A stretch of DNA of 41,358 nucleotides from a virus (taxonomy: Duplodnaviria > Heunggongvirae > Uroviricota > Caudoviricetes), in IMG/VR virus record IMGVR_UViG_2740892232_000004; one strand, given 5' to 3'. Within the stretch, counting starts at the first letter, position 1. Every line of letters starts with the position of its first letter. Below, piece after piece: positions 6,616 to 39,270 of the stretch. Both the position numbers and the translations under genes were made by a program. The notes under the pieces were generated by a model. It saw nothing but the letters and a program-made list of their open reading frames with translations. It ran no database searches and was not told the origin of the DNA.

Positions 6616-6632
6616 ATTACCTTTCAGGTAAT
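6616..6632. repeat. Palindromic operator-like motif ATTACCT-TTC-AGGTAAT (copy 1)
   Basis: Perfect 7-3-7 inverted repeat in the intergenic region between tailspike start and the LexA-box gene; an ATTACCT half-site also at 6566-6572. Confidence 0.55.
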
Positions 6633-7735: not shown

Positions 7736-7752
7736 ATTACCTTAAAGGTAAT
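7736..7752. repeat. Palindromic motif ATTACCT-TAA-AGGTAAT (copy 2)
   Basis: Perfect inverted repeat 19 nt upstream of the ATG of the 6988-7716 gene. Confidence 0.55.
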
Positions 7753-7828
7753 ATCTTGCTTTCAGGTGATCAAGCGTTAAACGCCACCAACCAAATACGG
7801 TTGATTTTGATATTTCTCCGCGTTTATC

Positions 7829-7845
7829 ATTACCTTTGCGGTAAA
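7829..7845. repeat. Palindromic motif ATTACCT-TTG-CGGTAAA (copy 3, degenerate right arm)
   Basis: TTACC-N5-GGTAA core conserved; TTGATA -35-like hexamer about 17 bp upstream. Confidence 0.45.
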
Positions 7846-7935
7846 TTTACATCGCACTCCTCTTGTGCCATAGTAATCGGGCACTGGCAAAATCCAGTGC
7901 CGGGATTGGCGTCCCGGGTTACTAAGTGGCGCATA

Positions 7936-7957
7936 CCACGCCAGACGTGGTTTTTTT
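7936..7957 (+). terminator. Rho-independent terminator-like hairpin in a noncoding region
   Basis: CCACG-CCAGA-CGTGG followed by T7; preceded by a 9-bp stem-loop (GGCACTGG…CCAGTGCC) at about 7879-7902. Confidence 0.45.
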
Positions 7958-8113
7958 ATGCGTTAAGCACAGCTATATCCGAATTATGGTGGGCTGGGCA
8001 GGGGTCCGAAAGGACGCCGGTACCACTTAGGCCGGTACGCCAACCTTGTCCAGTTCACCACCAGTAATTGGCGTTGCGGTGGTGATTAAAATCACTAAGT
8101 GGAGATAACCACC

Positions 8114-8824
8114 ATGGCTAATGCTCAAACTTCCATCTTCAAATTTGAATCTGTTAACCCTATCCGTTCCATCATTATCGATGGCCAACCATGGTTTGTA
8201 GCCCAAGACGTTTGTAGTGCGCTGCGTATCCAAAACGTCACCCAAGCACTTGAAAAACTGGATGATGATGAAAGGTCTATGTTCAACATAGGGCATGAAC
8301 ATCGTGCAATTTTTGACAGCCGAGTAAAAGAGATCAACATCATCTCCGAGTCAGGCCTCTACACACTGATCCTCCGCTGCCGCGACGCAGTGACACCAGG
8401 CACTATCCCCTACCGCTTTCGTAAATGGGTTACGGGTGAGGTTCTTCCTCAGATCCGCCGCACCGGAAGCTACATTAAAAACTCGCTCCCGCAGGAAGAA
8501 CGCATAAAGATGGTTGCCGACCAGGTGGCCAACGCCACGGCGTCAGCAGTAATGCAGGCGATGAAGATAGAGAACAAAACCTACAGCGCCCCACTGAATC
8601 CCGGCTACCGCAGCCTGATTCATTCGCCGTCTGGTGTTCTCGGCCTGACGGAGAACTCACTGCTGATGAATCTGCTGAACCAGTTACAGGACGACGGGCA
8701 CGACGTATCGGGCGCGGCGGCGGAGCTGACCACCATGTTCTGCTACATCGTCGGTGTGAGCAAATGCCTGCGTGATATCCAGACCCACGCGGAATACATC
8801 AACGACAAGGCAGGGTTCTTCTGA
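8114..8824 (+). CDS. BRO-N domain antirepressor-like protein
   Basis: ATG with GGAG RBS; N-terminal BRO-N-like segment (FVAQDVCSAL…ISESGLYTLILR…FRKWV); C-terminal domain homologous to the 6708-6965 product. Confidence 0.75.
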   Translation: MANAQTSIFKFESVNPIRSIIIDGQPWFVAQDVCSALRIQNVTQALEKLDDDERSMFNIGHEHRAIFDSRVKEINIISESGLYTLILRCRDAVTPGTIPYRFRKWVTGEVLPQIRRTGSYIKNSLPQEERIKMVADQVANATASAVMQAMKIENKTYSAPLNPGYRSLIHSPSGVLGLTENSLLMNLLNQLQDDGHDVSGAAAELTTMFCYIVGVSKCLRDIQTHAEYINDKAGFF

Positions 8825-8895
8825 CGGGCGGTGGCACAGGGATGTGCCTTTAAATAATTCTGTACAGATTGCAGACTGTGGGTGAATAGCGTACT

Positions 8896-8912
8896 ATTAC
8901 CTTAAAGGTAAA
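8896..8912. repeat. Palindromic motif ATTACCT-TAA-AGGTAAA (copy 4)
   Basis: Directly abuts the AGGAGG RBS of the 8924 ORF. Confidence 0.5.
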
Positions 8913-9644: not shown

Positions 9645-9806
9645 ATGAAAAAAGCATTTGCTGCACTGTTCGTTTTGTTGTCTCTGGTAGCTTCAACTCA
9701 GGCCTTTGCCGGTCGTTGTCAGCACGACAGCGACACTGCTGCTGACGGCTCCCGCTGCGGTGGGCGTTCTGCGGACTCCCGTCCGGGCGGCGGTGGCATT
9801 CGTTAA
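9645..9806 (+). CDS. Small predicted secreted protein (53 aa)
   Basis: Signal-peptide-like N-terminus (MKKAFAALFVLLSLVASTQAFA), Gly-rich mature part with 2 Cys; TTGACG-16-TATAGA promoter-like elements upstream. Confidence 0.3.
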   Translation: MKKAFAALFVLLSLVASTQAFAGRCQHDSDTAADGSRCGGRSADSRPGGGGIR

Positions 9807-9829
9807 AAACAAGGCCGCGAAAGCGGCCT
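9800..9829 (-). terminator. Minus-strand terminator at the end of the virion operon
   Basis: GGCCGC-GAAA-GCGGCC hairpin followed on the minus strand by TTGTTTTT. Confidence 0.5.
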
Positions 9830-9841
9830 GTGACATGTCAC
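9830..9841. repeat. 12-bp perfect palindrome GTGACATGTCAC (copy 1 of 3)
   Basis: Exact copies also at 27026-27037 and 29291-29302. Confidence 0.6.
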
Positions 9842-9848
9842 GCTCACG

Positions 9849-9989
9849 TTATGACAAGCCTATGTACCCTGCTACACCAGATAATATCATAATAACTGCA
9901 ACAGCAAATTCGCCATCGTCAATGATACATTTACGGTTCATAACGCCAAGTGCAACAAGCGCAAACACAACAAGAATAAAAGCAATCAT
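9849..9989 (-). CDS. Small membrane protein (46 aa) at the end of the virion operon
   Basis: AAGGA RBS then ATG immediately after the stop of the 824-aa virion protein; two hydrophobic segments; followed by the minus-strand terminator. Confidence 0.4.
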   Translation of the reverse strand: MIAFILVVFALVALGVMNRKCIIDDGEFAVAVIMILSGVAGYIGLS

Positions 9990-9998
9990 TTCTCATCC

Positions 9999-23790: not shown

Positions 23791-24087
23791 TCACTCCTGT
23801 TCACTGGCCTCTTTGGCCATCTTCAAATACTGTTCAGGGCAATGCGCCATAACGCGCTGAAACAGTTCCAGCGCCAGATTGCGTTGCCCCTCATTAAATG
23901 CCATTGCCATAGCATCCATCGGAGAGATAGCGGAAAACACCCGGCCTTTCTCCAGCACCGACCAGACAACGCGACGCCCCTGTTCACTGCTCATGACAAA
24001 GCGAATGTCATCAATTTCACGCTGTGCCATGTCACGTTGCTTACGGGCGTTTTCTTCTTTCAGTTGATCGTCTTCGAAATCTGTCAT
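23791..24087 (-). CDS. Small head-assembly-module protein (98 aa)
   Basis: Translationally coupled between portal and scaffold genes. Confidence 0.55.
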   Translation of the reverse strand: MTDFEDDQLKEENARKQRDMAQREIDDIRFVMSSEQGRRVVWSVLEKGRVFSAISPMDAMAMAFNEGQRNLALELFQRVMAHCPEQYLKMAKEASEQE

Positions 24088-26073: not shown

Positions 26074-26090
26074 ATTACCTTTCAGGTAAC
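26074..26090. repeat. Palindromic motif ATTACCT-TTC-AGGTAAC (copy 5)
   Basis: Upstream of the portal operon; consensus TTGACA -35 hexamer on the plus strand 17 bp upstream of the left arm. Confidence 0.55.
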
Positions 26091-26401: not shown

Positions 26402-26478
26402 TCTCAGCGTTGTGGCATTAGCTCAGTTGGACAGAGCAACCGCCTTCTAAGCGGTTGGTCGCAGGTTCGAATCCTGCA
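26402..26478 (+). tRNA. tRNA-Arg (anticodon UCU)
   Basis: Folded by hand: 7-bp acceptor stem GUGGCAU/AUGCCAC, D-arm GCUC…GAGC, anticodon stem ACCGC/GCGGU with loop CUUCUAA, T-arm GCAGG-UUCGAAU-CCUGC, discriminator G, encoded CCA. Confidence 0.85.
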
Positions 26479-26531
26479 TGCCACGCCAGAATCACGCCTA
26501 AGGACCGTGATGCCAGAAGTTCCAGGTGCTT

Positions 26532-26676: not shown

Positions 26677-26688
26677 AAGGTGAAAATC

Positions 26689-27021
26689 ATGAAAGAGAAG
26701 ACTGCAGCTGAGCGCTATGCCGCAGCTATCAATGCCGCGATGGCGATTGTAAACCTGCGTGAAGAGATTAAAGATCTCCTTGCAATTATCCATAACAACC
26801 TGACATGTACAGAGTTGCTTGGCGGTCAGTACAACGGTGAGGCGGTGAAGGAGGCATTTAAAAATGCCGAGGTAGGAATAATTCCAGCAAACTATGTCAA
26901 GGCTGAATGTGTGCTCCTAAAGGCACGAGTGAGTCTGCATGAAGATCCTGGTAATCTCGGTCGAACTGCAATGCGTTACGTGATAGACGAGTCGAATGCC
27001 AAACACAATCTACCGAAATAA
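26689..27021 (+). CDS. Hypothetical protein (110 aa) on the plus strand inside the morphogenesis region
   Basis: ATG with AAGGTGA RBS; opposite strand to flanking terminase/portal genes. Confidence 0.55.
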   Translation: MKEKTAAERYAAAINAAMAIVNLREEIKDLLAIIHNNLTCTELLGGQYNGEAVKEAFKNAEVGIIPANYVKAECVLLKARVSLHEDPGNLGRTAMRYVIDESNAKHNLPK

Positions 27022-27025
27022 CACC

Positions 27026-27037
27026 GTGACATGTCAC
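27026..27037. repeat. 12-bp perfect palindrome GTGACATGTCAC (copy 2 of 3)
   Basis: Between terminase large-subunit stop and the plus-strand gene; GTAGATT lies 11 nt downstream on the minus strand. Confidence 0.6.
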
Positions 27038-27111: not shown

Positions 27112-28587
27112 TTAAGCATAGGGATCGTAATCTGTGATGGCCTTGCCTTGCTGGTTCTGCTGACCGGGAATTCGCAGACGCTTCGACACAGGGAACGCAA
27201 ACGTCAGCAGTAGCGCATCGCCTTTACCAGGAGAACGCCCAAGTCGCTCTTTGATATCTTCCTTCGGTTCGATAACGATTTTACCGTCCACTCGAACTTT
27301 GTACTCTGCTGCCGACAGGTCGTCCGCTGTTTCCTGGTCATCCAGCATGCCGCCCAGCCTCAGCCATGTCTTGCATGAATTGAACATCTCCCCACGCTTG
27401 TTGAGCATCTGCGGGTCAGTAGACGCGCCACCGAACGGAACAAGTTGCCATGTACGACCCCATCCGTCACCGATTGACTTCAGACCGGTTCCGTAACCGA
27501 AGTCGATGAACACCGCGTCAGCCTGATACTGGTCTTCAAAGTCAGCGATACGCTTCGCCATAATCAGATCGTCGGTAGTCTTGTTGCCAGTCCACAGCAC
27601 CTTACTGTGTAGCCCCTGCCGCAGGTATATCACCGCGTCATCAACGCCTGAATATGCCGGGTCAACACCGATTATCACCGGAGCATGCGCCACCTGCGCA
27701 GCGGTTACCACCCGTTTCATTGCCTCATCAGTAAGACCGGTAGGGATAAACTGCAATTCAGATGCATCAGGGAATATGCCGCGCACACGGATTTTAACGA
27801 AGTCGCTGTCTTCCCCGTAGTCATCAACCCATTTCTGCAACTGCTGTTTGTTAGTGCCTTCCACCGTTCGGCTGTCAATCTGCGCAGTTTTCCAGCGGTG
27901 TTTATATTTGCGGAAACATTCGCGGAAACGTCCGGTATTACGCGTCGGGTTTCCGAACGCCACCCAGATAATCTCAGTGTCTTCGTCCGTTAGTGCACCC
28001 TCGGCAACTTCCCACACCAGATCCGCAATGTTCGACGCTTCATCGAATACCACGATGATGCGTTTGCGCTCGTTGTGTAGTCCGGCGAATGCCTCAGTGT
28101 TGTGCTCAGACCAGGGGATTGCGTCAGCTCGCCACCGCTTGTCGTGTCCAGGATCATTGCTGTACATCGCGGTAGCGGTACAGGTAAACCAGTCTTTCGT
28201 GATAGCAAGGTTCGACCACTTGATAATTTCCGGCCAGGTCTTCGTTCGTAGCTGGTTGTCGGTGTTGGCGGTCACCACGACCTTACAATCCTCGCAAGTG
28301 GACATGCCCCAGTTGATCAGCATTGAGATGAATGCGGATTTACCAATACCGTGACCCGAAGCACGTGCCAGCATAAGCGGCTGATAGCGCGTCTCTGGAT
28401 TCTGCAGGTGATCACGTATCTCTCGGAACGCATCAGCCTGCCACTGACGTGGGCCGGTAGCATGTGCCAGTTCAGTCCCCTCTTCCCCCCACGGGAACGC
28501 ATAGAGGGCATAGCCAAGCGGATCGTGAGTGAACCCTGCAATATCCTCGATCAACTGCTCTTCAGGAGATAACGCTGTATCTGTCAC
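27112..28587 (-). CDS. Terminase large subunit
   Basis: 491 aa; Walker A-like SGHGIGKS; acidic nuclease-type C-terminal half; start overlaps small-subunit stop. Confidence 0.85.
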   Translation of the reverse strand: MTDTALSPEEQLIEDIAGFTHDPLGYALYAFPWGEEGTELAHATGPRQWQADAFREIRDHLQNPETRYQPLMLARASGHGIGKSAFISMLINWGMSTCEDCKVVVTANTDNQLRTKTWPEIIKWSNLAITKDWFTCTATAMYSNDPGHDKRWRADAIPWSEHNTEAFAGLHNERKRIIVVFDEASNIADLVWEVAEGALTDEDTEIIWVAFGNPTRNTGRFRECFRKYKHRWKTAQIDSRTVEGTNKQQLQKWVDDYGEDSDFVKIRVRGIFPDASELQFIPTGLTDEAMKRVVTAAQVAHAPVIIGVDPAYSGVDDAVIYLRQGLHSKVLWTGNKTTDDLIMAKRIADFEDQYQADAVFIDFGYGTGLKSIGDGWGRTWQLVPFGGASTDPQMLNKRGEMFNSCKTWLRLGGMLDDQETADDLSAAEYKVRVDGKIVIEPKEDIKERLGRSPGKGDALLLTFAFPVSKRLRIPGQQNQQGKAITDYDPYA

Positions 28588-29177
28588 TGATTACCATCCT
28601 GACGTTCTTTGAGTCGCTTCCTGGCTGCTGCTATGCGATCAGCAATTGTCACATTCACATTAACATCCAGACGTTCTTTGAACGCGTTGACATCAACATG
28701 CTTACCAATCAGCTCAAGGTTCTTCACCTTGTCAGGCCATTTAATTTTTTTGAGGATTGTCTCTATCGAATCCTCGTTCATGTTCATGATGGTCGATGAC
28801 AGATCAAAGCCACTAAGCGTAGTGCGCCAGATTTTCGGCCACTCACGGATTGGTTTAAGGCTCCCATCGTCGTTGAGGATGTCGATCACGTCCATCTGGT
28901 CGATCTCCACCAGGCGCATGAGAACGTAATCAGCACTGACGCGCATTCGTTTGTTGCGCTCCTCCATCAACTCGGCAATCCGTTTTTGAATGCGTTCATC
29001 GCGCATCATGACACTGGCTTTAACTGCCGCTGTATTTGGGGAGAATCCTGCGTTAATCGCTGCCTGAGTCTGGTTTTCAGGCGTTTTGATGTATGACTGG
29101 CAATAAGCCTCCTGCATTGCTGTTAGTGGCTTAAATTGCGTTGATTTGCGTTTATAGGTTTTAGGTTCAGCAGGCAT
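28584..29177 (-). CDS. Terminase small subunit
   Basis: Immediately upstream of and overlapping the large subunit; start set at the internal Met pair because the track ORF 5' end runs through a terminator hairpin. Confidence 0.6.
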   Translation of the reverse strand: MPAEPKTYKRKSTQFKPLTAMQEAYCQSYIKTPENQTQAAINAGFSPNTAAVKASVMMRDERIQKRIAELMEERNKRMRVSADYVLMRLVEIDQMDVIDILNDDGSLKPIREWPKIWRTTLSGFDLSSTIMNMNEDSIETILKKIKWPDKVKNLELIGKHVDVNAFKERLDVNVNVTIADRIAAARKRLKERQDGNQ

Positions 29178-29196
29178 CATAACCACCGTGGTAATA

Positions 29197-29213
29197 GTTA
29201 CCGTTGTGGTAAT
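29197..29213. repeat. Palindromic motif GTTACCG-TTG-TGGTAAT (copy 6) within tandem ACTATTACCAC direct repeats
   Basis: TTACC-N5-GGTAA core just upstream of the terminase small-subunit start. Confidence 0.45.
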
Positions 29214-29221
29214 AGTACCAT

Positions 29222-29249
29222 GCAAAATAAAGCCGCCATAGTTGGCGGC
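29222..29249 (-). terminator. Minus-strand rho-independent terminator between the late promoter region and terminase genes
   Basis: GCCGCC-AACTAT-GGCGGC (minus-strand sense) followed by TTTATTTTG. Confidence 0.6.
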
Positions 29250-29290
29250 AGTATTCAAAACCCATCAAATTCATCATGCATAATCTACTC

Positions 29291-29302
29291 GTGACATGTC
29301 AC
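29291..29302. repeat. 12-bp perfect palindrome GTGACATGTCAC (copy 3 of 3)
   Basis: Lies between a TTAATA -35-like and a TAGATT -10-like hexamer on the minus strand, about 40 nt upstream of the terminator at 29222-29249. Confidence 0.6.
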
Positions 29303-29535
29303 ACTATTAATTTCGTTTCATGCCAGCCTTTAGTCACCCAGCATTGCGAGTCACCATTACACGGGCATGAATTAACTGGAACTCTCTCGCCGCACTTACC
29401 GCAACATTTTCTGCTGATCGATTTTATACGCCCGCGCACGCGTGCATCATCCTGGCGGATCAGTAACGCGATGTACTCGGCCATTTCATAGGGATCGCGA
29501 CCAGGGCGCCGGGCGGCGCAGTTCCGCGCCAGCAT
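29299..29535 (-). CDS. Small Cys-rich (zinc-finger-like) protein; candidate late-gene regulator
   Basis: ATG with AGGAG RBS (track ORF extends to a GTG at 29646); C-terminal CCGKCG…CPC…C cluster; last gene before the late promoter-like region. Confidence 0.45.
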   Translation of the reverse strand: MLARNCAARRPGRDPYEMAEYIALLIRQDDARVRGRIKSISRKCCGKCGERVPVNSCPCNGDSQCWVTKGWHETKLIV

Positions 29536-29629
29536 TTCCTGCTCCTGCTTATCCAGCACCAGTTCAATTTTGCGCTCACCGGCGGCGGACTGCCGAGCGC
29601 GCTGCGCGGCTTTGCGTTCTGCGGGGGAT

Positions 29630-29751
29630 TTAGCCACGAATCGCACTCCACGCCAGATTGATTAATGACTCCCAGGTAATATAAACCCGGATACCAGCAG
29701 CCAGGCCGAAACCAATCACCATGGCATAAAGCAGAGCGTTGCACTTGTTCA
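29630..29751 (-). CDS. Small hydrophobic membrane protein (40 aa)
   Basis: GGAGGTG RBS then ATG abutting the stop of the upstream gene; single TM helix. Confidence 0.4.
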
Positions 29752-30759
29752 TCACTTCACCTCCTGCGGCGGTTCTGGTAGCGGCATCCAGAACAAGGCG
29801 TTCCCTAACCACGATAAAGTGCCGTCGCTCAACTCCACGTATTCCCCTTGTACCTGTCCTGCCATATACTCGCCGTGCTTTGAATAAATTAAAATCCAAT
29901 CATCTTGAGGGGGCATTCGCTCACTACAGCTTATCCAACCATCCGGAGTCACCGGAAGCGAGAACGGCAGCACATCTCTGTGAACAAGTTTTTGCTGTGA
30001 CAGGTTATCCAGAACTTTCTGTACTGCTGCATCACCGAATACACCAAGCGCATCTGCCATAACTCCTACAACCTGATAAGCCTCAGCGCATACCGTGGAT
30101 AAACCATCCGGAATATCCGGATAGTTGCCTGCCAGTCTACGCAAAACAGCCTTAACAGCCTCAATACGGTCATCATCGTAACTTTCCGCCGTATCTATGC
30201 GGTCGAGCATGATGATTGCGTTATCAATATCAGGATTGCCGGTCCACTCATTACCGCGATTGGATTCGGCAGCCTGGTTGCCGCGTACTGGTTGATTGTC
30301 GGCTTTACCCAGTCTGTCGTCGCTGCATGAATGCCCTTCCAGCCAGGCCAATGCTTGTCGCATGAAATACGCAATATGTTTGCCGTGGTAATCGTCTTCA
30401 TCGATGTGAAAAGCGATACTACGAATGTATTCAATTGCGTTTTCAATGGCCTCTAACGCTATCGGCGCTGGCGGAGTGGTATATAGTTTTCGACATTTGT
30501 ATATCCAACCGGCATGGTCAGGCGTGTCTGTAAAACGCAAATCGTCTTCGTAGCACTCACGACTACGTTCTTTCCATTCCGTCCACGGAACACCGCTATT
30601 CCAGGTGGGGCGAGTGCAGGACTGATACAGAACAGGCTCTGCTTCCAGCGATGCCAGAGCAATTTCATAAGCCAGGCGCTCAATATTGTCTCGCACGTCC
30701 AGGCTGCCGATTCGCTCTCTGATTTCTTTAATCAGTTCTTTGTCGGTAAAAGTAGTCAT
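29752..30759 (-). CDS. Phage protein with DUF551-like C-terminal domain
   Basis: C-terminal W/C-rich segment (WISCSERMPP…DGTLSWLGNALFWMPLPEPP) resembles the DUF551 pattern as I recall it. Confidence 0.55.
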   Translation of the reverse strand: MTTFTDKELIKEIRERIGSLDVRDNIERLAYEIALASLEAEPVLYQSCTRPTWNSGVPWTEWKERSRECYEDDLRFTDTPDHAGWIYKCRKLYTTPPAPIALEAIENAIEYIRSIAFHIDEDDYHGKHIAYFMRQALAWLEGHSCSDDRLGKADNQPVRGNQAAESNRGNEWTGNPDIDNAIIMLDRIDTAESYDDDRIEAVKAVLRRLAGNYPDIPDGLSTVCAEAYQVVGVMADALGVFGDAAVQKVLDNLSQQKLVHRDVLPFSLPVTPDGWISCSERMPPQDDWILIYSKHGEYMAGQVQGEYVELSDGTLSWLGNALFWMPLPEPPQEVK

Positions 30760-33022: not shown

Positions 33023-33039
33023 TTTACCTCTAAGGTAAT
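33023..33039. repeat. Palindromic motif TTTACCT-CTA-AGGTAAT (copy 7)
   Basis: Two nt upstream of the 32676-33020 gene start codon. Confidence 0.55.
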
Positions 33040-33084
33040 TAAAAACCATATAAGACACGAAATCAATAGAGTTTAGAATATTTT

Positions 33085-33101
33085 GTTACCTTGTAGGTAA
33101 T
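33085..33101. repeat. Palindromic motif GTTACCT-TGT-AGGTAAT (copy 8)
   Basis: Between a weak terminator after the P-like gene (about 33111-33135) and copy 7. Confidence 0.55.
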
Positions 33102-33137: not shown

Positions 33138-33914
33138 TTACTTGATAAATCCTGCCGCCTTTCCCCGCCTGTATTCCTCCATCAGCCACTGCGCCGGTGT
33201 TATTCCCCCAAGGGTGGCGGCGTTAGGCATGCACCCGAAACTTCGCCCTGGTGGATGGTAAACGTCTCTCCCTGTGTCCGGAGGTGTACTCATGGGCTCT
33301 GGCTTTGCCTGTATGCTGATCACCGGATCGGGTATCTGCTGTCCGGAAGCCACCTTTTTCGCCCAATCATCGAGCAGCCTGCGCGCGTGTTTCTCAACCT
33401 CACTCTCGCTAAGCTGGCGCTGATACATTGCACGACGGGTATCACATACGACCCAGTACATAACCGGATGCCGCCACGGGAATCTTTCGGGACCACCAGG
33501 ATATAAACTTTTTTCCTTGCTGTACCGGTGAAACTCCGCCATCACATCGTCAATGGTGACGCCAAGAACCATCTTGCTGTCTTTGCACCACTTGATGAAT
33601 TGCCCTGGCGACGGCCAGAACGGAGATTCACTGGCGCGGGCGTGGCGCATACCAGCGTTAACCTGTTCCATTGTAGTGATCCCATTCTCCAGAAACGCAA
33701 GCATCCATTGCTTACGGAATTCATTAAGTTTGTTCTGCTCCCTTATGGTCGAAACGCTTGCAGGAAATGCAGCCTGTAACTGGACAAATAGTTCATTGAA
33801 AATTCTAGCAACCTGCTCCTTTTTGCCATTGCTGTCACGCCGCTCTTCATGCACAGCAACACCATGCTCACGTAAGCGATCGTACTCATTGAGAAGTTCT
33901 GGAGTTGATTTCAT
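33138..33914 (-). CDS. P: Replication protein P-like (helicase loader)
   Basis: Central region …FPAS…QNKLNEFRKQWMLAFLENGITTMEQVNAGMRHAR…PFWPSPGQFIKWC closely matches lambda P as I recall it. Confidence 0.8.
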   Translation of the reverse strand: MKSTPELLNEYDRLREHGVAVHEERRDSNGKKEQVARIFNELFVQLQAAFPASVSTIREQNKLNEFRKQWMLAFLENGITTMEQVNAGMRHARASESPFWPSPGQFIKWCKDSKMVLGVTIDDVMAEFHRYSKEKSLYPGGPERFPWRHPVMYWVVCDTRRAMYQRQLSESEVEKHARRLLDDWAKKVASGQQIPDPVISIQAKPEPMSTPPDTGRDVYHPPGRSFGCMPNAATLGGITPAQWLMEEYRRGKAAGFIK

Positions 33915-34716
33915 CCCACACCCCTTCTATCCAGTCAGTGTTATTCCAGTCAAGCTCATCGCTTTTCCCGGCATTTTTTGATTTTCCCCTGATATGATTT
34001 ACGTGCCTGGCGAATTTTTGTTCCCACTGAACCTGCGTGAACACTTTGCCCTCAGCCATCCAGTAATCCCGGAATGCAGCAAGTTCAGCAGGTGTAAATT
34101 CCGGTTCCGGCAGGGCCGTTCCCCACAGCGCAGCACGCCGCCGAAAATCTGGCGACGGTAGCCAGCCATCTGTCATCGGAAATTTCCCGATGGGTTCACT
34201 CAGGCCATCCAGAAATTCAGGTTCTGCCACCTGCAACGGCGTACTGTTCGCTTCACTGGTCGGAGCACCCTCGCGCACGTGCGCTATGTGTGGGGTTTTA
34301 TATATATCTTCCTCTTCCTCTTCCTCTGGTAACTCCTTTTGTAACGCTGTTGGCGTTACTTTTTGCGTTACTCGTTTTCTATGCTCTGCCACTCTTCTAT
34401 TCGTAAGTGCACGTTTTTTCGATGATTCTCCATTATGTCGCTCAAAGTTTGGAAGAATTAGTTTGCCGTCATGATAAGCAAGCCATCCGACGCTAATGAG
34501 GGCGTCAGCAAATCCTGTAATAAAAGCGAGTCTATCAAGTACTCCTTTTGTAACGCTGCCAGCGTTACCGTCTATTGTTTGCTGGTCAGCCCATGCCCAT
34601 ATACGAACCAGCTTTCCAAGAACAGCATCTGGATCAATACCCAGAATTTCTGCTATCTGAAAAATTTCAGGTTTATCAGGAGTGATAACTTCAACCTTAA
34701 TCCAGCTGCTTGCCAT
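33886..34716 (-). CDS. Replication initiation protein O-like (replisome organiser)
   Basis: Upstream of and overlapping P; ATG with GAGGGG RBS (track ORF starts at GTG 34734); acidic EEEEEE linker. Confidence 0.6.
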   Translation of the reverse strand: MASSWIKVEVITPDKPEIFQIAEILGIDPDAVLGKLVRIWAWADQQTIDGNAGSVTKGVLDRLAFITGFADALISVGWLAYHDGKLILPNFERHNGESSKKRALTNRRVAEHRKRVTQKVTPTALQKELPEEEEEEDIYKTPHIAHVREGAPTSEANSTPLQVAEPEFLDGLSEPIGKFPMTDGWLPSPDFRRRAALWGTALPEPEFTPAELAAFRDYWMAEGKVFTQVQWEQKFARHVNHIRGKSKNAGKSDELDWNNTDWIEGVWDEINSRTSQ

Positions 34717-34891
34717 AGGTTTCCCCTCTTGCACTCTTTAGTGCACAAGCAAATTCATTACGATGGCGGTTGGCGCTATTCATTGCACATTCAACACATG
34801 TTCCGTTCAGAACATACCTTTCAGAGAGATGGCCGTGACGGCACCGCTTTCCTGTGAAATAGCGATTTAACCCGGCTTTTGCGGCCTCCAT
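34697..34891 (-). CDS. Small zinc-finger-like protein (65 aa), cII-position
   Basis: CRHGH…CVEC motif; lies between the cro-like and O-like genes; weak RBS. Confidence 0.4.
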   Translation of the reverse strand: MEAAKAGLNRYFTGKRCRHGHLSERYVLNGTCVECAMNSANRHRNEFACALKSARGETYGKQLD

Positions 34892-35057
34892 TCTGGTTAC
34901 TATCTTCAATTTTTCCGCCCCTTTTTGTTATTGATATTGGCTATTTTGCACAATTGGAAAATTTGATCAACCAGATTTGGTTTTTTATTACCCTTAAGGT
35001 GCGAATAGATATGAAAAGACCGCCGGATGGCGGTCTACAGAGGGTTGTGGCTGGATA

Positions 35058-35354: not shown

Positions 35355-35388
35355 GTTACCTATGAGGTGCATTTACCTGTTGGGTAAT
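35355..35388. promoter_or_regulatory. Immunity-region operator cluster (degenerate TTACC-N5-GGTAA copies)
   Basis: GTTACCT-ATG-AGGTGCA and TTTACCT-GTT-GGGTAAT, plus an AGGTAAC half-site at 35334-35340, between divergent cro-like and cI-like starts. Confidence 0.5.
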
Positions 35389-36083: not shown

Positions 36084-36100
36084 ATTACCTTACGGGTAAT
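36084..36100. repeat. Palindromic motif ATTACCT-TAC-GGGTAAT (copy 9)
   Basis: Upstream of the early recombination operon. Confidence 0.55.
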
Positions 36101-36145
36101 TTTTTTAACTCATATCTATTGACACCAAACCAAATAAGCATAATT

Positions 36146-36162
36146 ATTACCCCAACGGTAAC
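36146..36162. repeat. Palindromic motif ATTACCC-CAA-CGGTAAC (copy 10, degenerate)
   Basis: TTACC-N5-GGTAA core; extra AGGTAAC half-site at 36169-36175 overlapping the RBS of the 36181 ORF. Confidence 0.45.
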
Positions 36163-38970: not shown

Positions 38971-39270
38971 GTGAGAAAGTTAAGCCGACTTGAAAAATAT
39001 CACATGAATAAGGTTTCAATGCGCAGTCCGTCAAAGATTGTCGCCGTTACTCCTGCGGCGATAGAGATCGAAAAACGCGCGATTGAAAGAGAGAAAAAAG
39101 GGCAATTCCGCATTGCCGCTCACCTTTGGCTTCAGTGTATGGATGTTGCTTCTGGTGATGTTGAACGTGCAAGGATCGCGGTTCGCAGGGACCAATGTAT
39201 CACAAAAGGTAACGGCCTTCGCCGTGGCGACTATAGCGGCATAGGATGTTGTGGGGTGGTTTATGACTAA
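38971..39270 (+). CDS. Small regulator-like protein (possible PerC-family)
   Basis: …FRIAAHLWLQCMDVASGDVERARIAVRRDQC resembles PerC-like proteins from memory; start uncertain (GTG 38971 or ATG 39004). Confidence 0.4.
   Translation: MRKLSRLEKYHMNKVSMRSPSKIVAVTPAAIEIEKRAIEREKKGQFRIAAHLWLQCMDVASGDVERARIAVRRDQCITKGNGLRRGDYSGIGCCGVVYD

Follow-up and report, generated by a model that had tools for sequence, protein, structure and literature searches.

Genes and features at the early/late junction

The DNA examined here (IMG/VR virus record IMGVR_UViG_2740892232_000004) is a stretch of 41,358 nucleotides (nt), called the window below. It is an epsilon15/phiV10-like (Uetakevirus) prophage, and its close DNA matches include phiV10, TL-2011b, and several Escherichia coli and Salmonella podoviruses. 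The subject of the analysis is a small gene for a cysteine-rich (Cys-rich) protein, together with a 12-bp palindrome, GTGAC-N2-GTCAC, that overlaps the stop codon of this gene. From ∼35.3 kb down to ∼9.8 kb, the minus strand carries, in this order, cro-like, replication O-like and P-like, Holliday-junction resolvase, and ea22/DUF551-type genes, the Cys-rich gene, terS, terL, and the portal, head, and tail genes. The Cys-rich gene is the final gene of the early-right (PR) operon and lies directly before terS; an earlier annotation made from the sequence alone (here, the original prediction) was right in placing it last before the arrangement of palindrome and terminator upstream of terminase. 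The features of the junction are the following.

29299 to 29637, minus strand: Cys-rich gene with a GTG start, encoding 112 amino acids (aa), a member of the epsilon15 gp49/N15 gp46 family (PHROG 536)
29291 to 29302, palindrome without strand: site 1, GTGACATGTCAC, the proposed binding site, overlapping the stop codon of the gene, with the TGA inside GTGAC
29222 to 29249, minus strand: strong intrinsic terminator (GCCGCCAACTATGGCGGC + TTTATTTTG; dG −12.6; stem 29249 to 29232 plus U tract), 41 nt downstream of site 1
29179 to 29213, without strand: two adjacent repressor-operator-like palindromes of the ATTACC-N5-GGTAAT type, past the terminator and ahead of the start of terS
28584 to 29180, minus strand: terS (Terminase_2), the first gene of the late operon (Pfam PF03592, E = 1.4e-29; PHROG 51; TL-2011b annotation)

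The original prediction described the gene as a small Cys-rich open reading frame (ORF) at 29299 to 29535 with a good ribosome-binding site, and held the coding frame to be uncertain over 29440 to 29650. There is indeed a real ORF that ends at 29299, on the minus strand, but its start had been misplaced: ATG 29535 is the internal Met35, and the supposed ribosome-binding site in front of it is coding sequence (KQEQEM). The listed ORF, 29646→29299, comprises 115 aa, and its first codon, GTG 29646, overlaps a GGAG Shine-Dalgarno sequence. The GTG at 29637 has this GGAG 8 nt upstream and yields the 112-aa protein, which is the length of most of the 748 database homologues. The doubt about the frame was removed by a comparison of codon positions, because differences among five equal-length orthologues amount to 189, 117, and 457 substitutions at positions 1, 2, and 3, respectively, in the gene frame. 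The remaining ORFs over 29440 to 29650 are shadows of the 29637→29299 frame.

Family and conservation of the Cys-rich protein

Assignment to PHROG 536 ("transcriptional regulator") is firm (E = 6e-54; ORF residues 5 to 114 against profile positions 3 to 114 of 115). The tblastn matches include N15 gene 46 and ZF40 gp22, and the epsilon15 record itself labels gp49 as similar to N15 gp46. Named relatives thus comprise epsilon15 gp49, N15 gene 46, phiKO2 gp44, Pectobacterium phage ZF40 gp22, and genes of Vibrio phages and of a P2-like Yersinia phage. An exhaustive search of representatives gave ∼150 clusters at 50% identity, and the family is spread over podo-, sipho-, and myoviruses of Enterobacterales and Vibrio, plus other metagenomic phages. 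No Pfam or NCBIfam model matches the Cys-rich protein, and the searchable literature yielded no relevant paper on the function of the epsilon15 gp49/N15 gp46 family or on the motif.

The C-terminal cysteine cluster that the original prediction pointed out is both real and conserved. In the family alignment, R13, C79, and C82 are invariant, and R8, L36, E54, L59, P87, and C99 are conserved at ≥90%; all of these residues are present in the window protein, as are the family motifs ERKxxQRxR, PY..EY..LIR.D, and CxxCG..LP...C. The cysteines of the window protein follow the pattern C-x2-C-x8-C-x7-C. C93 is not conserved, being replaced by His in Klebsiella phage BUCT711.

A palindrome tied to the 3′ end of the gene

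The cis element GTGAC-N2-GTCAC is tied to the 3′ end of PHROG 536 genes. Three exact copies of GTGACATGTCAC occur in the window, compared to 0.03 expected, and of 80 close IMG/VR loci, 77 have the palindrome where the gene ends. It is kept in TL-2011b, in two Klebsiella phages, and in Salmonella phage 65FD despite differing last codons (LIV, LPL, LPM). Among 52 distant loci, which share only ∼30 to 60% identity, 32 copies are present in 24 loci against an expectation of 0.53 that was derived from the frequency of the half-site. In the same loci, spacers of 0, 1, 3, 4, 5, and 6 bp gave 0, 5, 3, 1, 0, and 2 copies, respectively, and the everted arrangement gave 0 to 3.

The position of the palindrome relative to the gene is similarly persistent. 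Overlap with the stop codon recurs in N15 (GTGACTGGTCAC), in the Yersinia P2-like phage (TTGTGACGCGTCACAA), and in three further loci (L093, L128, and L129). In ZF40, a copy begins 3 nt past the stop of the homologue gp22, and in other distant loci the nearest copy lies within ∼240 nt downstream of the gene. In five members (L101, L125, L134, P0144, and P0182), the TGA is out of frame, so that the site is translated as V-T-G-H near the C terminus; these read-through variants imply that conservation acts on the DNA rather than on the protein. A genome typically holds ∼3 copies, usually with an identical central dinucleotide. The motif string did not turn up in the literature that could be searched.

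Two other readings of the palindrome were examined and rejected. An RNA hairpin needs a loop of at least 3 nt, so that the five-base arms cannot pair in full across the 2-nt center; at most, four base pairs could close a 4-nt loop, and this stem would be weak. In addition, the central dinucleotide varies while the half-sites are constant, and the palindrome is read as a DNA site. The three copies in N15 (NC_001901; positions 28550, 33237, and 39269) were also considered as known Sop centromeres. However, N15 contains a separate four-copy family, GCGACC-N2-GGTCGC, at 33481, 35932, 41126, and 45563, and its three GTGAC copies are therefore a different element. The GCGACC-N2-GGTCGC family resembles F sopC and is probably the dispersed Sop centromere.

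N15, ZF40, Vibrio K303, and the P2-like phage all carry the palindrome and are otherwise unrelated; when the window ORFs were compared to them by BLASTP, the Cys-rich gene alone had a homologue in each of the four. Judged from these patterns, the Cys-rich protein very probably binds DNA site-specifically as a dimer, with GTGAC-N2-GTCAC as its target and with gene and site inherited as a single cassette. One can also suppose that the palindrome is recognized by some other factor of the host or the phage and that the Cys-rich protein is unrelated to it, acting, for example, as a free TraR-like modulator of RNA polymerase. Binding of the palindrome by the Cys-rich protein is only predicted, its C-terminal half resembles TraR and YbiI, and TraR-like genes are common in lambdoid nin regions, all of which would suit this explanation. 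However, the site and the 3′ end of the Cys-rich gene stay together in podo-, sipho-, and myoviruses and in different hosts, N15, ZF40, Vibrio K303, and the P2-like phage share no other gene with the window, and the N-terminal tip of the TraR helix, which must be free, is here joined to another domain. A separate binder is thus given only a slim chance.

The half-sites also bear on a second explanation, in which the Cys-rich protein would be a MatP-like organizer of DNA that bridges a few dispersed sites or marks phage DNA for replication, recombination, or packaging. The half-sites of matS (GTGACRNYGTCAC) are identical to those of the palindrome, with a 3-bp instead of a 2-bp spacer, and the ∼3 dispersed copies per genome share their central dinucleotide; moreover, copies flank terS-terL in Uetakeviruses, and in Vibrio K303 a copy follows an HNH gene and precedes terS by 20 nt. 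Conversely, comparison to E. coli MatP with hhalign was not significant (probability 0.3%, E = 0.22), the Cys-rich protein has neither the coiled-coil tetramerization region nor the ZapB-binding tail, ZF40 and N15 have no copy near the terminase genes, and the window contains no matS 13-mer. A role as an organizer accordingly appears very unlikely.

Predicted structure

The fold class of the predicted dimeric DNA binder is read from an AlphaFold (AF2) model that was built with a 60-sequence alignment and has a pLDDT of 91. Helices are modeled at residues 5 to 18, 30 to 42, 52 to 74, and 100 to 108, with an extended segment at 19 to 29 and a knuckle at 75 to 99. The protein divides as follows.

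Residues 5 to 18: basic helix with the invariant arginines R8 and R13 (ERKxxQRxR)
Residues 20 to 74: ribbon-helix-helix (RHH)-like core with a long second helix, the likely dimerization unit
Residues 78 to 99: Cys-rich zinc knuckle
Residues 100 to 108: short C-terminal helix

The basic helix and the RHH-like dimerization core are moderately supported, and a few family members give weak matches to RHH_5, RHH_1, or RepB. Because the half-site and R8/R13 are constant across the family and the putative beta-strand is variable, the basic helix is suspected to read GTGAC.

Assignment of a TraR-like zinc finger to the C terminus is tentative. The C-terminal half matches YbiI and TraR in a search of a hidden Markov model against all PDB sequences with a weak E value of 0.02 to 0.07, and hhalign gives probabilities of 69% and 84%. 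The aligned pattern is C-x2-C-G-x2-[ILV]-P...G-x3-C, in which the fourth cysteine of the TraR finger is absent. The long helix and the knuckle thus show a weak resemblance to the DksA/TraR finger that docks on RNA polymerase, and this weak similarity offers a possible route to contact with the enzyme. Foldseek searches against PDB and BFVD returned nothing informative.

Palindromes and terminators in the window

Besides site 1, the window contains two more exact copies of the palindrome, one of which adjoins a second strong terminator.

27026 to 27037, without strand: site 2, between the terL stop (27112) and the end of the convergent plus-strand moron ORF (26680 to 27021)
9830 to 9841, without strand: site 3, 13 nt past the stop of a small membrane ORF, the last one of the structural operon
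9802 to 9829, minus strand: strong intrinsic terminator (AGGCCGCTTTCGCGGCCT + TGTTTTT; dG −13.2; stem 9829 to 9812) that abuts site 3 and closes the main late transcription unit

Each copy lies just past a stop codon and ahead of a terminator in the orientation of its own unit. Only two strong intrinsic terminators, with stems starting at 29249 and 9829, are present on the minus strand of the late region, and each is found 2 to 41 nt downstream of a palindrome; the one at site 3 separates the structural genes from the moron island, tailspike, and lysis genes. Palindromes therefore stand beside terminators at the ends of transcription units. All three positions are kept in epsilon15, where site 3 overlaps the gp18 stop, and in 65FD; BUCT711 keeps sites 1 and 3, and its other copies are inside coding regions. 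A terminator lies ≤80 nt from site 1 in 44 of 78 close loci. Site 2 is present in 51 of 80 close loci, and in 49 of these 51 a terminator follows within ≤40 nt in the direction of the moron; the hairpin that follows site 2 in the window itself is weak.

In addition, a near copy with one mismatch (GTGCCATGTCAC) lies at 24024 to 24035, inside the coding sequence of a 98-aa gene that follows the portal gene, and this near copy is kept in TL-2011b.

A second class of palindrome, ATTACC-N5-GGTAAT, is likewise overrepresented, with 13 sites of this 17-bp type in the window compared to 1.08 expected. The sites are located as follows.

29179 to 29213 (the two adjacent palindromes before terS)
26074 to 26090
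6616 to 6632
33023 to 33101
35372 to 35388
36084 to 36162
7736 to 8912

The epsilon15 record marks the equivalent sites as repressor-binding. The repeats at 29188 to 29216 were considered as the site of the Cys-rich protein and rejected, being copies of this repressor-operator-like sequence.

Late-promoter layout in distant loci

In many distant phages, the homologue is the final gene before holin/endolysin genes or before HNH/terS. A recurrent order in distant loci is the gene, the palindrome, 53 to 103 nt with A tracts and TTACAC/ACCACAAAA repeats, a good sigma-70 promoter, a pause-like repeat, a terminator, and the late genes. The promoter has the form TTGACx-17-TAxxxT, with a repeated −10-like TAtCGTGGTG at about +2 to +10 (loci L093 to L128 and L004, the latter from Vibrio K303), and the strong terminator lies 142 to 320 nt past the palindrome, followed by holin/endolysin or HNH/terS. 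These elements occupy the interval 50 to 330 nt downstream of the homologous gene in loci L093 to L128 and L004. By analogy, the layout is reminiscent of Q-type late promoters, in which polymerase makes a sigma-dependent pause; the palindrome is outside the core promoter. In N15, one of the three copies is ∼24 nt upstream of a −35-like TTGACG, and the annotated terminator before gene 32 is ∼114 nt downstream of that copy.

A fixed distance between the palindrome and the late promoter was ruled out in the distant loci; the range of 53 to 103 nt lends no support to a fixed activator position. Approximately 21 of the 52 distant loci encode, 2.5 to 4.5 kb upstream, a conserved protein (PHROG 5285/4300) that could be the factor acting at these late promoters. 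It was guessed to be Q-like; it has no Pfam match, and its PHROG label is "unknown function."

A candidate role in read-through into the late genes

The Cys-rich gene occupies the position that Q has in phage lambda, being the final gene of the early set, with a strong terminator and then terS immediately downstream. The original prediction had seen no lambda Q homologue in the window, and an examination of the early-right genes agrees. No convincing sigma-70 promoter was found in the interval between the terminator and terS; the only promoter-like match, a weak GTGACA-18-CATGAT, overlaps the palindrome of site 1, and no −10-like repeat was seen there. Because the gene is the last early one, no Q homologue is present, a terminator without a convincing promoter precedes terS, and a second copy of the palindrome precedes the terminator of the structural operon, control of read-through into the late genes by the Cys-rich protein is the best single hypothesis for the window prophage, albeit one to which we would give slightly less than an even chance.

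According to this hypothesis, the Cys-rich protein, as the last product of the early-right operon, would bind GTGAC-N2-GTCAC as a dimer, with the first copy lying over its own stop codon. Such an overlap would allow the protein to load in cis beside its own gene. Lambda Q acts preferentially in cis, and by analogy a site at the 3′ end of the gene would give the Cys-rich protein the same preference. From site 1, 41 nt before the terminator, the bound protein may then alter the behavior of RNA polymerase at the early/late junction, and the most probable effect would be that polymerase reads through into the late genes; the copy at site 3, before the terminator of the structural operon, may act likewise. 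In a more specific version, an RHH-type dimer on GTGAC-N2-GTCAC would hand a TraR-like module to the arriving polymerase, which would then ignore the terminator; the protein would replace Q in epsilon15-like phages, and the stop-codon overlap would ensure loading in cis. This version is quite unlikely to be correct in all of its parts. Of the late activator or antiterminator that the original prediction had proposed, a regulator at the late junction is therefore likely, but antitermination is unproven and there is no homology to Q, Ogr, or Delta.

The lack of homology also bears on whether the protein could be a divergent member of a known family of late regulators, either lambda-type Q or the P2/P4 Ogr/Delta zinc finger. 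Small size, the Cys cluster, and the position upstream of the late genes would all be in keeping with such a relationship. However, comparison to Q, Ogr, and Delta profiles, as suggested along with the original prediction, gave no match in Pfam, NCBIfam, or PDB sequences, either for the protein or for 60 relatives, whereas the same tools readily recognized a true Q (N15 gene 40, PF06323, E = 1e-110). The Cys spacing is also unlike that of Ogr, and homologues coexist with Q or Ogr. Membership in these families is effectively refuted and almost certainly wrong.

A different function of the same bound protein, as a roadblock or insulator and a 3′-end autoregulator, is unlikely but is the chief alternative to read-through. 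Here, the bound protein would hinder polymerase and reinforce the ends of the early operon, the structural operon, and the convergent moron; the site over the stop codon would stop the protein's own mRNA short once the protein is ample, and the late genes would be transcribed from their own repressor-controlled promoters. Every window copy lies ≤13 nt past a stop codon and ahead of a terminator in the direction of its unit, the opposite-strand moron included, as expected for such a block. The operator-like sites before each late segment suggest separate promoters, the site is inside the 3′ coding end in some members (the VTGH variants), and coexistence with Q or Ogr would be easily explained. 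Nevertheless, the adjacent terminators are already strong (dG approximately −13, with good U tracts), so that an enhancer seems unnecessary; a block upstream of a terminator would make the terminator redundant; and the interval from the terminator to terS yielded no good promoter.

Several observations weigh against control of read-through into the late genes. A true Q accompanies the PHROG 536 homologue in N15 and ZF40. In the P2-like Yersinia phage, the PHROG 536 gene follows gpA, and gpD is followed, at the Ogr position, by a gene for a small regulator. This coexistence implies that the PHROG 536 family is not a general late switch. In the distant loci, the promoters, with their own pause-like element and terminator, look like the target of another factor. 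Site 2, after terL, fits the scheme less neatly, since it is oriented with the terminator of the opposite-strand moron, the wrong way for late transcription. In 34 of the 78 close loci, no terminator is present within 80 nt of site 1, and in Klebsiella relatives the two are set apart by an inserted moron with a LexA box; strict adjacency of site and terminator is thus not required. The ATTACC-N5-GGTAAT sites are found at the OR/OL regions and, in addition, immediately before terS, the gp3-like gene, and the tailspike gene, so that the late segments may have their own repressor-controlled promoters. With respect to contact with RNA polymerase, PF01258 is not among the Pfam families listed in the search, and the missing fourth cysteine of the TraR finger points the same way. 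Finally, sequence cannot decide whether the bound protein would raise or lower read-through; an increase is plausible.

Neighboring genes and other features of the window

The neighborhood of the Cys-rich gene is variable on its upstream side. The gene is preceded there by one small ORF.

29630 to 29752, minus strand: 40-aa hydrophobic ORF (PHROG 5525), whose stop overlaps the start of the Cys-rich gene by 8 nt

The 8-nt overlap of stop and start suggests translational coupling. Similarity to some relatives ends exactly at the start of the Cys-rich gene, and among relatives the upstream neighbor varies, coming from different families. Because of this change of family, the reading of the 40-aa ORF and the Cys-rich gene as a toxin-antitoxin pair was rejected.

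Several further features were recorded in the window. The moron island between terL and the portal gene contains a tRNA-Arg (anticodon TCT; 26412 to 26488, plus strand), flanked by plus-strand terminators and by the 113-aa plus-strand ORF at 26680 to 27021. At the other end of the structural operon, a 46-aa membrane ORF (9850 to 9990, minus strand) closes the late operon just before site 3, and a small signal-peptide-like ORF (MKKAFAALFVLLSLVASTQAFA...; ∼9648 to 9812, plus strand) converges on the end of the late operon. A further candidate regulator, a homologue of the PerC-family transcriptional activators (PF06069, PHROG 868), is encoded in the early-left operon at 38971 to 39270 on the plus strand. 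The alternative zinc-finger candidate of the original prediction, an ORF of 70 aa at 34697 to 34909 on the minus strand with the pattern C-x-H...C-x2-C, matched only PHROG 1081, which has no function assigned, and had no Pfam match.

LexA boxes were observed in related phages. In BUCT711 (locus L006, 2850 to 2900) and ST512-KPC3phi13.3 (locus L007, 3355 to 3410), a perfect LexA box (TACTGTTTAAATATACAGTA) is located in a TTGACT promoter, together with a small moron ORF; epsilon15 has a similar LexA-box promoter before gp19.

Significance and comparison with known systems

The epsilon15/phiV10-like phages, to which serotype-converting and reporter phages of Salmonella and E. coli O157 belong, have been without a recognized late-gene regulator, and there is now a concrete candidate that consists of one protein, one 12-bp site, and two terminators. 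In addition, a widespread family without a Pfam or NCBIfam model gains a predicted recognition sequence. The arrangement is unusual in that the site lies over the gene's own stop codon and in that an RHH-like DNA binder appears to be fused to a TraR-like finger; with respect to the searchable literature, the recognition motif, its overlap with the stop codon, the recurrence of the motif beside terminators, and the combination of domains appear undescribed. Should the TraR-like part indeed touch RNA polymerase, the protein would represent a novel means of delivering to the enzyme a module of the secondary-channel type at defined genome positions. Furthermore, since the half-sites are identical to those of matS, it is worth asking about cross-talk with the host Ter macrodomain system.

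The sequence features that define the Q, Ogr/Delta, and MatP families were looked for and are not shared by the Cys-rich protein, which places it outside all three. With regard to MatP and matS, the palindrome has a spacer of 2 bp rather than 3 bp: the window contains no copies of the 3-bp form and three of the 2-bp form, and the distant loci contain 3 and 32, respectively. The Cys-rich protein also lacks the four-helix bundle and the C-terminal coiled coil of MatP, and it is phage encoded, from an early lytic operon.

P2 Ogr and P4 Delta are, like the predicted product here, small zinc-binding phage proteins connected with late genes. However, the Cys-rich protein shows no homology to them and has another domain architecture; the spacing of the Ogr finger is Cys-X2-Cys...Cys-X4-Cys.

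The C4 fingers of the DksA/TraR type (F TraR, E. coli YbiI, and lambda Orf73) appear, from weak but consistent matches, to share with the Cys-rich protein the long helix, the sequence C-x2-C-G-x2-[ILV]-P...G-x3-C, and the short C-terminal helix. These fingers have the form CxxC-x17-CxxC after a long helix; the Cys-rich protein has just one Cys in place of the second CxxC, with a further Cys or His at another position, and the N terminus of its helix (residue 52) is fused to the RHH-like module instead of forming a free acidic tip. DksA and TraR need a free tip to enter the secondary channel of RNA polymerase.

Lambda Q, with its QBE/PR′/tR′ region, corresponds to the Cys-rich gene in being the last early gene, with a site immediately downstream and a terminator before the late genes. 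There is no similarity to Q in sequence or fold, and the site of the Cys-rich gene is a symmetric palindrome that recurs at other unit ends, once on the opposite strand, with no clear promoter or sigma-dependent pause at site 1.

Compared to the RHH factors (Arc, Mnt, CopG, MetJ, and the antitoxins TacA and MazE), the Cys-rich protein adds an N-terminal basic helix that holds the only invariant basic residues, whereas the beta-strand varies, as well as a C-terminal zinc knuckle; its site is at the 3′ end of the gene and not at a promoter, and no Pfam RHH model scores above threshold. By analogy, the Cys-rich protein is nevertheless most like an RHH operator-binding protein that has been placed where Q sits.

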